Origin: Escherichia coli
GTDB taxonomy: Bacteria; Pseudomonadota; Gammaproteobacteria; Enterobacterales; Enterobacteriaceae
NCBI RefSeq assembly: GCF_001677475.2
Contig: NZ_CP015229.1
Reading direction: 5' to 3' (one strand)
Length of the DNA: 64,000 nt
Part shown: positions 57,167 to 60,020 of the stretch, in pieces
Numbering within the stretch: the first letter of the stretch is position 1
Layout of the letters: each line of letters opens with the position of its first letter
Program-made: the position numbers and the translations under genes
Notes under the pieces: model-generated
Database searches by the model: none
What the model saw: the letters and a program-made list of their open reading frames with translations, nothing else
Told to the model about the DNA's origin: nothing

Positions 57167-57575
57167 GCATATCCGCATGGCGATGAATGCCTGGGCATAC
57201 CCTGATGGTGAGAAAGTTCCTGCAGCTGAAATAGCCCGGACTTATTTCGAACTGGGAATGACGTTCCCGGAACTGTACGACGACAGCCATCCGGAAGCCC
57301 TGGCCCGTAATACCCAGAAAATTTTCCGTTGGCTGGATAAAGACACCCCTGATGCTGTTGAAAAAATGCAGGCTCTGTTACCGGCGATCGAAAAGGCGAT
57401 GCCGCCTTTGCTGGTGGCCCGTATGCGCAGCCACAGTTCTGAGTATTACCGTGAGATTGTCGAACGGAGGGATCGGTTGGTGAAAGATGTCGACGATTTT
57501 GTTGCGTCAGCGGTTGTTTTGTATGACCAGATGAATCGCGGCGGCCCGGCAGGAAATGCCGTGGTGATGCACTAA
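57150..57575 (+). CDS. ydaT: YdaT-like (CII-position) protein
   Basis: 141 aa starting MKIKHEHIRMAMNAWAYPDGEKVPAAEIARTYFELG. It follows ydaS, as in Rac. Confidence 0.75.
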   Translation: MKIKHEHIRMAMNAWAYPDGEKVPAAEIARTYFELGMTFPELYDDSHPEALARNTQKIFRWLDKDTPDAVEKMQALLPAIEKAMPPLLVARMRSHSSEYYREIVERRDRLVKDVDDFVASAVVLYDQMNRGGPAGNAVVMH

Positions 57576-57597
57576 CAGCACGGTGTTCGGGGGTTTT

Positions 57598-58566
57598 ATG
57601 AGCAGCAAGCTTCATGGTCTTGTCTGGGAAGGATGCGCCTTCACCGGCATGATCTTATCCCGGGTGGCAGTGATGGCCCGTCTTGCAGACTACAGCAATG
57701 ACGAGGGCGTGTCATGGCCTGCTATTGAAACTATCCGGCGTCAGATCGGTGCAAGAAGTGAATCCACAGTGAAATCGGCTATTGCAGAACTGGCGAAAGA
57801 GGGCTGGCTGACGAAGGAAGAGCGTAAGGTCGGTGGGCGTAATGTAAGCAATATCTATCGGCTTAATGTGGAAAAACTCGAAGCAGCAGCTGCGGCGGCG
57901 CGTGAGTCATATAAACCGAAAAGAAAAATTAGCCCGGCAAAAAATGACCCGTTAACAGTTGACCCGTCAAATATTGACCCCTCAACGGTTGACCCGTCAA
58001 ATTTTGATGGATCAACTGTTGATAAAAAACTGCCGATTAGGGGGACGATGATTGACCCCGATCAGTCAGTATTAAAACCTGATCCGTCAGATGAAAGATC
58101 TTCTTGTCCTGACGTTTCACTGCCGGACAAAAAACAATCATCACCAGTTGAGCGATTTCTGGAGAAACACCCGGATGCGCATACCTGGAATGTGCAGAAG
58201 CGACAGTGGGGTACCCGTGAGGATGTCGCCTGTGCGCAGTGGATTTGGGGACGGGTTGTTGCGTTGTATGAACAGGCCGCCAGTGATGATGGTGAGGTAT
58301 CACGCCCCAGAGAACCTAACTGGACGACCTGGGCGAATGATGTGCGCATGATGCGTATGCTGGATGGACGTAGTCACCGGCAGATTTGTGAAATGTTTGG
58401 GCGTGTCCAGCGGGATTCGTTCTGGGTAAAAAACATCATGAGTCCGGCAAAACTCCGGGAAAAATGGGATGAGCTGGTTATTCGTCTGGGGCGTTCGCCT
58501 GTACAGCGTTGCGTGAATCACATTTCTGAACCGGATACCGAAATTCCGCCGGGGTTCAGGGGGTAA
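57598..58566 (+). CDS. Replication initiator O-like protein (YdaU-like, N-terminal wHTH)
   Basis: 322 aa from MSSKLHGLVWEG. It contains the internal iteron array, which encodes DPLTVDPSNIDPSTVDPSNFDGSTVD. Confidence 0.75.
   Translation: MSSKLHGLVWEGCAFTGMILSRVAVMARLADYSNDEGVSWPAIETIRRQIGARSESTVKSAIAELAKEGWLTKEERKVGGRNVSNIYRLNVEKLEAAAAAARESYKPKRKISPAKNDPLTVDPSNIDPSTVDPSNFDGSTVDKKLPIRGTMIDPDQSVLKPDPSDERSSCPDVSLPDKKQSSPVERFLEKHPDAHTWNVQKRQWGTREDVACAQWIWGRVVALYEQAASDDGEVSRPREPNWTTWANDVRMMRMLDGRSHRQICEMFGRVQRDSFWVKNIMSPAKLREKWDELVIRLGRSPVQRCVNHISEPDTEIPPGFRG
57945..58019. repeat. Five tandem 15-bp iterons (candidate phage origin) inside the O-like gene
   Basis: tgacccgttaacagt, tgacccgtcaaatat, tgacccctcaacggt, tgacccgtcaaattt and tgatggatcaactgt, at exact 15-bp phasing. 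Degenerate copies occur at 58053 and 58080, with an A-rich stretch in between. Confidence 0.7.
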
Positions 58567-58608
58567 GTGCTGATTTGAGGTCATGAAGTTATTTTCTCAG
58601 GAGAGTTT

Positions 58609-59010
58609 ATGGGGGCTATTTATACCGAAGAACAGCGGGAAAGGTTACAGCGTCACATCGTTGACCTTGTACGTAAAAACGGGCGTATGACAATGCCACA
58701 ACTGGCATCGGCAACATATGCTTCACATGATTCCATTCGCCGGTACCTGAAGATGCTGGTGAGCCAGGGCGAAGTGTATGTTGTCAGCGGAAAAGGGGTA
58801 TTCCTTTCAGAGAGAGTTTACCGTGAATGGCTGGCAAGTTCGGCAAAAAAATCAAGGGTTATCCGCAAACCAGCACAAAAACAGGGTAAGGCCGGAGTAC
58901 AACCCTACGACCGGCACCAGAACGTAATTTGCCGGGAATGTCGTAACAGCGAATCAATGCAGCGGGTACTGGCTTTTTACAGGGGTGGATTTCAGGAGCT
59001 CGTATCGTGA
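58609..59010 (+). CDS. Hypothetical winged-helix-like protein
   Basis: 133-aa ORF starting MGAIYTEEQRERLQRHIVDLVRKNGRMTMPQLASATYASHDSIRRYLKMLVSQGEVYVV. Confidence 0.6.
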   Translation: MGAIYTEEQRERLQRHIVDLVRKNGRMTMPQLASATYASHDSIRRYLKMLVSQGEVYVVSGKGVFLSERVYREWLASSAKKSRVIRKPAQKQGKAGVQPYDRHQNVICRECRNSESMQRVLAFYRGGFQELVS

Positions 59011-59315: not shown

Positions 59316-59557
59316 AAATCCTGTATCAGGATTACGGCCCGGTGGGACAGGTGGTTATCAGCAGTACTGTAATGGAGTTCCGGAAGCATAACCGTGTGGT
59401 GGATGCAGTGCTGTTAGCCTGTCCGGGGATATCGGCGAGCCGTGCAGGTGTGTTTTTTATGAAGACGAAGTTATATGGCAGTACAGCGTGGATAAAGAAG
59501 GCGTACCGGGTAGCGTTGCAGGAGGTAAACAGTGAGCGAATCGGCAACCATTCTTGA
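59312..59557 (+). CDS. Hypothetical phage protein
   Basis: 81-aa ORF translationally coupled to its neighbours. Confidence 0.5.
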   Translation: MKILYQDYGPVGQVVISSTVMEFRKHNRVVDAVLLACPGISASRAGVFFMKTKLYGSTAWIKKAYRVALQEVNSERIGNHS

Positions 59558-60020
59558 TATGTCCTGTGGCAGTCGTATGTTCTGGTTCGATAAGAATGAC
59601 GACCGGGCGATATTTAGCGATATCAGAAAAGAAGAGCACACATTATGTGATGGACGACGCCTGATAATTAGCCCTGACCTGATAGCAGATTTTCGTGCAT
59701 TACCATTTGCAGACGCATCGTTTCCGGTTGTTGTATTCGACCCTCCGCATCTTGAGCGTGTTGGTGATAACGCCTGGATGGGAAAGAAATATGGACGGCT
59801 GAATAAAGATACCTGGCGTGATGATTTGCGGCAGGGATTTAAAGAAGCCTTTCGTGTGTTGTGGCCACACGGTGTTCTGATTTTTAAATGGAATGAAACG
59901 CAAATACCTGTCCGCCAGATATTGGCACTAACCGACGCGAAACCAATCATCAGCCAGCGCACCGGTAAGAACGATAAAACACATTGGATTATTTTTGTGA
60001 AGGAAGCGACCAGTGGGTAA
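59532..60020 (+). CDS. Small SAM-dependent methyltransferase, putative orphan DNA (N6-A/N4-C) methyltransferase (GTG start)
   Basis: 162 aa with a motif I-like ILDMSCGSRMF and a motif IV-like VVFDPPH. A strong SD AGGAGG lies upstream of the GTG. There is no adjacent endonuclease gene. Confidence 0.65.
   Translation: MSESATILDMSCGSRMFWFDKNDDRAIFSDIRKEEHTLCDGRRLIISPDLIADFRALPFADASFPVVVFDPPHLERVGDNAWMGKKYGRLNKDTWRDDLRQGFKEAFRVLWPHGVLIFKWNETQIPVRQILALTDAKPIISQRTGKNDKTHWIIFVKEATSG

Follow-up and report, generated by a model that had tools for sequence, protein, structure and literature searches.

The window analysed here is a 64-kb stretch of Escherichia coli DNA (contig NZ_CP015229.1 of RefSeq assembly GCF_001677475.2), and all plain coordinates below are positions in it. 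It corresponds to a Rac-like lambdoid prophage of E. coli strain 08-00022 (99.9% identity) and carries, at 57598-58566, a gene for a replication initiator resembling the O protein of phage lambda. An array of 15-bp repeats lies in the middle of this gene, and a first-pass annotation of the window, made from the letters alone, had proposed that these repeats mark a replication origin. The analysis reported here indicates that the repeats and two GATC-containing boxes to their right very probably act as DNA rather than as code for a peptide, and that the array is probably the iteron part of the origin of the prophage.

The initiator comprises the following parts.

57598-58566, plus strand: O-like initiator gene of 322 residues, with an HTH_36 N-domain, a disordered linker, a lambda-O-type C-domain and a DnaT-like tail (open reading frame (ORF); RefSeq coding sequence WP_040091029 in the nearest genome).
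57598-57912, plus strand: N-terminal winged-helix DNA-binding domain, residues 1-105, the presumed iteron binder (helix-turn-helix plus beta wing, predicted local distance difference test (pLDDT) 72-89).
58204-58482, plus strand: C-terminal domain, residues 203-295, homologous to the C-domain of lambda O (by BLASTP and tblastn).
58504-58563, plus strand: C-terminal tail RCVNHISEPDTEIPPGFRG, which closely resembles the C-terminal end of host DnaT (identity at 14 of 20 residues).

The O-like label given to the gene by the first-pass annotation is borne out by a match to PHROG 391, 'replication initiation O-like' (2.5e-105), and by the C-domain, in which residues 203-295 align with residues 188-270 of lambda O at 43% identity (BLASTP, E 2e-24). 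A tblastn search with this domain also matched lambda (E 5e-17), phi80, 434 and Stx phages. In lambda, the C-domain of O binds P. The N-domain is of a different family, HTH_36 (PF13730, 2.3e-6) here as against Phage_rep_O (PF04492) in lambda; Pfam found no PF04492 in the initiator, while lambda O itself scores 5.7e-36. Judged by sequence, the initiator is therefore outside the Phage_rep_O family in the strict lambda O sense, because its N-domain differs. AlphaFold2 predicts a winged helix at residues 1-105, a linker at residues 108-178 with pLDDT below 50, a folded C-domain at residues 180-298 and a disordered tail. A Foldseek search with the N-domain returned generic regulators only, with winged helices of the MarR/PadR/PaaX type, and a sequence search of solved structures with the initiator gave no informative match.

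The array occupies codons 116-144, inside the disordered linker, and consists of the following sites.

57944-57955: iteron 1, degenerate, ATGACCCGTTAA.
57959-57970: iteron 2, a 12-bp dyad, TTGACCCGTCAA.
57974-57985: iteron 3, TTGACCCCTCAA.
57989-58000: iteron 4, TTGACCCGTCAA.
58004-58015: iteron 5, TTGATGGATCAA, an inverted site (reverse complement TTGATCCATCAA) that contains GATC.
58019-58030: end of the array, a half-site TTGAT followed by A6 (TTGATAAAAAAC).

The five phased repeats described by the first-pass annotation were confirmed at every one of their starts, namely TGACCCGTTAA at 57945, TGACCCGTCAA at 57960, TGACCCCTCAA at 57975, TGACCCGTCAA again at 57990 and TGATGGATCAA at 58005. 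The spacing is exactly 15 bp, and a sixth half-copy, TGATAAAAAA, begins at 58020. Each unit is a 12-bp dyad of the form TTGAC-NN-GTCAA. The array at 57944-58030 has five such dyads that are complete (TTGAC-CC-GTCAA type) and a sixth half-site; taken whole, it is an imperfect palindrome of 33 + 33 nt centred at 57987. The first-pass annotation mentions neither the dyad form nor the inversion of the fifth unit, nor the GATC in the downstream copies. Tandem Repeats Finder reports a period of 15 with 5.0-5.1 copies and 71% match, and a better row with a period of 30 and 84% match. When both strands of the 64 kb were searched, matches to TGACCCGTCAA with at most one mismatch were found only at the first four array positions, on the plus strand; at up to two mismatches there were 22 matches window-wide against 16.6 expected, which is not above chance, and 9 of the 22 fall within 57945-58090. 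The array translates as NDPLT VDPSN IDPST VDPSN FDGST VDKKL, i.e., the (V/I)DPS(N/T) peptide repeat described earlier. The proposal that successive sites lie on alternating faces of the helix holds as arithmetic, since 15/10.5 gives 1.43 helical turns per repeat and thus a rotation of about 154 degrees from site to site, but it is not a finding in itself; this rotation does mean that the geometry of the array must differ from the roughly two-turn spacing of lambda.

Whether such a repeat is kept as DNA or as peptide was examined in 80 loci, taken from one-genome-per-species Enterobacterales assemblies together with E. coli alleles; the genera include Escherichia, Edwardsiella, Erwinia, Morganella, Proteus, Providencia, Yersinia, Rahnella and Pantoea. 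In every full-length homologue the strongest autocorrelation of the linker falls at 15 or 30 nt, and the number of units ranges from 2 to 9. The unit is rTTGAnssnTCAAmn in class A, to which the window belongs (N-terminus MSSKLHGLVWEG), TCTGAysyrTCArAA in class B, the e14/SfIV type, and TCTGACCGTwCAGAw in a small Proteus clade, and across all three types the flanks of the unit track the clade of the N-domain. Adjacent cores within the arrays are 15 bp apart in 180 cases and 30 or 45 bp apart in 27, while the other recorded core distances are those between the last unit and the boxes downstream. As a side observation, a 30-bp super-period is present at 57933-58022, where alternate units carry the spacers AAT-ATT and AAC-GGT, and CCG and GCA centres alternate in class B arrays. 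Pairs of sites may be the working unit of the array.

One explanation of the repeat is selection on the peptide (V/I)DPS(N/T), which could be, e.g., a short linear motif that binds a host factor. The recurrence of D, P and S in the units agrees with this explanation, as does the near-invariance of the downstream DPS motifs as amino acids. However, the units encode 106 distinct pentapeptides (28 in class A and 78 in class B), the central residue in class B is free (P, A, T, G, V, R, L or H), and DPS is replaced by EGS, EGL or DPP with the DNA dyad kept. Class A arrays even hold both TTGACCCCTCAA, read as DPS, and its exact reverse complement TTGAGGGGTCAA, read as EGS. A codon-choice test, in which units were defined from the peptide alone, gave a similar picture: serine at unit position 4 is encoded by TCA in 32 of 32 class A cases and 241 of 267 class B cases, against 14-17% elsewhere in these genes, serine at position 1 by TCT in 184 of 201 (9% elsewhere), and the unit lysine by AAA in 200 of 200 (63% elsewhere). 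Where the first residue changes (to F, P, T, Y, C or A), its codon still ends almost always in T (class A, 31/32; class B, 241/267). Codon choice is thus fixed far past what the amino acids require, and an explanation by the peptide is, in our judgement, highly improbable.

The same trend was observed at third codon positions. In a codon-aware alignment of 66 class B genes, the N-domain shows third-position information of 0.3-0.6 bit at an amino-acid conservation of 0.85-0.94, whereas codons ~96-160 show 1.0-1.55 bit at an amino-acid conservation of 0.62-0.86. The share of the commonest codon in class B rises from about 0.5 to 0.9-0.98 over the linker, and class A behaves alike. Third-position conservation is therefore highest across the linker, exactly where amino-acid conservation is lowest. 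The first-pass annotation had named conservation as peptide only as the result that would speak against its reading; the opposite was found, with the DNA motif and its 15-bp spacing kept and the peptide varying among about 80 homologues. The constraint extends over a block larger than the array itself, with the following parts.

57898-58113: synonymous-site-constrained block, about codons 101-172, over which the cis-acting origin is proposed to extend.
58052-58069: half-site TTGACCCC plus GATC box 1, which reads GATCAGTCAG (family consensus GATCCGTCAG).
58070-58079: A+T-rich spacer TATTAAAACC that separates the two GATC boxes.
58080-58090: GATC box 2, TGATCCGTCAG, iteron-like and in phase with the array.

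In the codon-aware alignment, this block has third-position information of 1.1-1.7 bit and a top-codon share of 0.83-0.97, compared with about 0.5-1.0 bit and 0.5-0.8 in the folded domains. It lies within or adjoins the linker at residues 108-178, and since the linker is predicted to be disordered, no fold accounts for the constraint. The constraint continues past the repeats into a non-repeated stretch (TTTCACCCGTCAGAATCTGGCGGGGATCCGTCAGTAAATTCAAAACAAGATCCATCAGATAAAAAACC in class B, 58052-58113 in the window) that contains two iteron-like boxes, GATCCGTCAG and GATCC(G/A)TCAG, each with a Dam site. All 66 class B genes have GATCC at box 1, and 58 of the 66 have it at box 2; the boxes are uniformly 24 bp apart in class B, and 18 or 21 bp apart in 11 of the 13 class A genes measured. 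GATC is about three times as dense in the linker as in the remaining sequence of the genes, and the four GATC sites at 58010-58100 (90 bp) are the tied highest density in the window. Two degenerate copies of the repeat had been placed here by the first-pass annotation: the one at 58080 is in phase with the array (9 x 15 bp) and coincides with box 2, whereas the one at 58053 is a half-match (TGACCCC, then GATC) and out of phase (108 bp).

A second explanation holds that the array has no function at the DNA level, being a slippage-prone repeat that codes for a flexible linker, with its similarity among homologues arising from concerted evolution and from recombination at a mosaic junction. The copy number of 2 to 9, the disorder of the linker, the mosaic breakpoint just downstream (~58110) and the decay of single units in some alleles are all in keeping with it. 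However, concerted evolution homogenises units only within one genome, and the codons TCA, TCT, AAA and GAC are kept across genera in which the flanking domains have 40-60% amino-acid identity and near-random third positions. The site is also kept in both orientations despite a radical change of peptide, and the downstream boxes, which are not repeated, are equally constrained. The pentapeptide, codon-choice and third-position results contradict both this explanation and that by the peptide, and we regard a linker without DNA-level function as very unlikely. The linker element, i.e., the repeats together with the two GATC boxes, is thus, judged by its sequence conservation, very probably functional as DNA.

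The modular structure of the family bears on the protein with which this element works. One type of N-domain plus linker is found joined to either a lambda-O-type C-domain or a Phg_2220_C C-domain. Comparison of the window with strain 95NR1 (L002) places a mosaic breakpoint just past the constrained block: identity is about 99% as far as ~58110, falls to about 70% in the first half of the C-domain, and is close to complete again between ~58390 and the stop codon. With the N-domain and linker kept together across swaps of the C-domain, and the breakpoint after the block, the DNA element travels with the DNA-binding domain.

Origins inside initiator genes are known from several phages. Lambda, the Stx phages, P22 and phage L carry distinct iterons within the initiator gene (PMC7466680, PMC8022706), and two iterons of lambda are enough in vitro (PMC7466680). 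The GenBank record of lambda lists four iterons at O codons 117-145, with starts 20, 24 and 23 bp apart, and the record of phi80 lists four gp15 sites at codons 122-147, spaced by 20-21 bp; the array at codons 116-144 is thus in the equivalent position. As in lambda and the Stx phages, the candidate origin is situated midway in the initiator gene, in the part that codes for the linker, and its iterons are imperfect inverted repeats (PMC7466680). The initiator shares with lambda O the arrangement of an N-terminal DNA-binding domain and a homologous C-domain (43%), and its gene likewise follows cro-like and cII-like genes in an early rightward operon; the order in the window is racR (minus strand), the ydaS/cro-like gene, the ydaT/cII-like gene, the initiator at 57598-58566 and a DUF977 gene. 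The candidate-origin reading of the first-pass annotation is accordingly strengthened by three lines of sequence evidence, namely the conservation at the DNA level, the O-like gene and the position equivalent to that in lambda and phi80. By analogy with lambda, the array is probably the iteron part of a prophage replication origin situated in the linker-coding DNA of its own initiator.

The evidence for selection at the DNA level is silent on which function was selected, and a cis-acting element that is bound by the initiator or another phage protein and is not an origin has to be considered as well, e.g., an autoregulatory operator or a roadblock within the gene, a copy-control (handcuffing) array, or a site for partition or packaging. 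The array has no strong AT-rich unwinding element beside it, and in other replicons short dyad arrays serve as centromere-like or operator sites (general knowledge). However, the array takes the position of the proven lambda iterons and of the annotated gp15 sites of phi80, stays linked to the DNA-binding domain of the initiator through C-domain swaps, and consists of an iteron motif found nowhere else in the 64-kb window. No partition genes were found in the neighbourhood of the initiator. The iterons of lambdoid phages serve the origin, and autoregulation would be compatible with an origin. An element of this other kind therefore seems unlikely, though less so than the two explanations that deny a role of the DNA.

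Several points weigh against the array being an origin, or against the strength of the case for it. The units are related by descent and slippage, so that Fisher p-values are inflated and overstate independence, and a frame test, which asked whether one DNA motif occurs in different frames among homologues, found always one frame and adds nothing. Some E. coli alleles have four units instead of five and core substitutions in single units (TGCC, TGGC, TAAC), and such degenerate units imply that not every unit is maintained. The separation of half-sites, 7-8 bp, is short for a typical winged-helix dimer. A search near the array found no AT-rich tract like that of lambda: the A-rich stretch reported by the first-pass annotation is present but short (six A at 58024-58029), and the adenine-plus-thymine (A+T) content is 70% in the richest 40 bp (at 58000; 97th percentile of the window) and 62% at 58060-58110, with short A-runs. 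No helicase-loader or ATPase gene is present downstream of the initiator in the window, where the DUF977 gene starts at 58609; in close relatives (L002, L003, L005, L006), a DnaC-like ATPase gene and a DUF1627 gene lie between the initiator and DUF977. The origin of this particular window may be impaired, given the absence of a loader gene and a private 58064 C>A change that alters the conserved box 1 GATCCGTCAG and replaces P by Q. Finally, the searchable literature yielded no origin-activity or binding data for any member of the family. A loader gene is also absent from the viable class B phages SfIV, Kati, PhiR49_1 and vB_EcoM-689R6, suggesting that it may not be required and that its absence need not mean a defect.

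The private change at box 1 is one of five differences from the nearest genome in 4 kb (58017, 58045, 58064, 58093 and 59219), four of which cluster within 77 bp just past the array. The substitutions at 58045, 58064 and 58093 were not seen in the relatives examined, and the T at 58017 is common to 95NR1. An exact match to the N-domain-plus-repeat stretch of the window was found in none of 5426 complete E. coli genomes. The class A N-domain with its repeats is nevertheless widespread, being present over at least 80% of its length in 1517 of the 5426. No sequenced phage in the collection searched carries class A at more than 60% protein identity. The sister class, B, is found in the Shigella serotype-converting phages SfII and SfIV, and the viable phages named above carry the class B version.

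If the array is an origin, a mechanism can be proposed by analogy with lambda (PMC7466680). Dimers of the N-terminal winged helix would bind each TTGAC-N2-GTCAA site, and four to six abutting dimers would form a complex resembling the O-some. This complex would destabilise the adjacent, moderately A+T-rich DNA around the GATC boxes (~58000-58100), and transcription through the gene from the early rightward promoter would help the opening. The lambda-O-type C-domain and the DnaT-like tail would then bring in the helicase, for which relatives could use the phage DnaC-like loader and the window, lacking a loader gene, host DnaB-DnaC. The GATC boxes may be methylation-sensitive variants of the iteron or targets of SeqA. 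A more radical version, in which the origin has an architecture of its own, appears doubtful to us. According to it, abutting 12-bp dyads at 1.43 turns would form a continuous lattice in which half-sites alternate at distances of 7-8 bp, and would support an initiator filament unlike the wrapped O-some of lambda. Opening would occur at the Dam-methylatable GATC pair, 18-24 bp apart, instead of at an AT-rich tract, firing would be coupled to methylation or SeqA, and the DnaT-copying tail would deliver the helicase without a phage loader.

The DnaT-like tail comprises the last 20 residues of the initiator (QRCVNHISEPDTEIPPGFRG), of which 14 are identical to E. coli DnaT residues 160-179, and it gives a weak NCBIfam match to DnaT; in E. 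coli, dnaT lies directly upstream of dnaC. The tail suggests a handle for the host DnaB-DnaC pathway, a suggestion that we infer from this likeness, and it may be a portable motif that engages DnaC or the helicase. It also ends YdaU of the Rac prophage, an otherwise unrelated protein. In addition, many phages with O genes that otherwise lack DNA similarity to this gene share its last 63 nt at 89-97% identity.

Lambda has four iterons and an AT-rich tract of about 40 bp in gene O, and Stx phages have six iterons. The sites of lambda are 18-19 bp long and recur every 20-24 bp, whereas those of the array are 12-bp cores every 15 bp with a different sequence; the AT-rich tract of lambda has no clear counterpart here, where two conserved GATC boxes are found instead, and its P-type loader likewise has none, the loader being DnaC-like in relatives and missing in the window. 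Gene 15 of phi80 resembles the present gene in having its sites inside the initiator gene and a homologous C-domain (34% identity), with a weak and short DNA resemblance to the right of the sites. The phi80 sites, in contrast, are 15-16 bp long, 20-21 bp apart and of the type TTCCCGAAAACGG, and the phi80 loader, gp14, is P-like. For phage L, six imprecise 11-bp repeats (TGTCCAACGGA) were proposed as the origin from sequence alone (PMC8022706), which is the same kind of sequence-based inference as that made here. Gene 18 of P22 and phage L encodes distantly related initiators and carries its own in-gene set of repeats, as here, but differs in the initiator N-domains, in the repeat sequences and in having the DnaB-type helicase gp12 as the partner. 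Plasmid iterons are about 17-22 bp long, about two turns apart and outside rep, usually with DnaA boxes and a clear AT-rich element. The iteron plasmids pPS10, F and P1 nevertheless share with the array tandem, evenly spaced sites and a winged-helix Rep, and P1 oriR also has GATC sites beside its iterons (general knowledge; review PMC4980987).

The initiator module is very common in E. coli, and the searchable literature holds no definition of its origin; searches with the motif strings, SfIV or the replication module found nothing specific. A located cis element would be useful for building replicons, for predicting the incompatibility of co-resident prophages and for judging which prophages still replicate. 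The shared C-domain, combined with a different DNA-binding domain and iteron geometry, makes a natural comparison with lambda, and the method, which looks for a peak of synonymous-site conservation inside a disordered linker, is applicable to other initiator genes. The principle will not surprise a specialist, and the parts of experimental interest are the strict 15-bp lattice, the GATC boxes and the DnaT-like tail.

Other features of the locus were also examined. A promoter and terminator scan of 57500-58700 found nothing, and no overlapping ORF of at least 40 residues spans the array on either strand. An Rfam scan of 57400-58700 gave only a sub-threshold mir-250 match, which is due to the palindromic repeats. 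A DnaA-box-like sequence, TTTTCCACA, at 57867-57875 on the minus strand, 70 bp upstream of iteron 1, was set aside, as the window has 4 such matches against 5.9 expected and class B does not conserve it. A gene for a DNA methyltransferase (PHROG 954) is located at 59532-60020, four genes downstream of the initiator, and several of the class B phages and prophages examined have an annotated N6-adenine methyltransferase two genes past the initiator. Box 2 and its flank (58075-58095, AAACCTGATCCGTCAGATGAA) can be aligned with the right arms of the lambda and phi80 origins (AAAAGATTATTCGTCAGAGAA and AAAAGATCTTCGTCCGAGAA; L089 855-875 and L094 1155-1175). Homology of the right side of the array to these arms was not relied on, since the likeness, of the CGTCAGA type, is too short.

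The first-pass annotation had suggested ydaU of Rac as a gene for comparison. It turned out not to be a homologue: YdaU belongs to the DUF1376 family, and only its last 19 residues, the tail mentioned above, align with the initiator (68% identity), the rest being unrelated. Codons ~118-148 of K-12 Rac ydaU (L095 2972-3063) do contain four AAGCAGATGTTCAA-like 14-mers, spaced by 33, 33 and 12 bp, whose relative position in the gene corresponds to that of the array, and these 14-mers may be the iteron set of a Rac origin. A further variation was observed in two E. coli loci (L085 and L088), in which an ORF of 455 residues begins with the N-terminus of a class B initiator (MSTKLTGYVWDG) for 79 codons and continues with unrelated sequence. 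This ORF appears to be a deletion fusion from which the origin and the remainder of the replication gene have been lost, perhaps, we presume, like ymfN of e14 in K-12.

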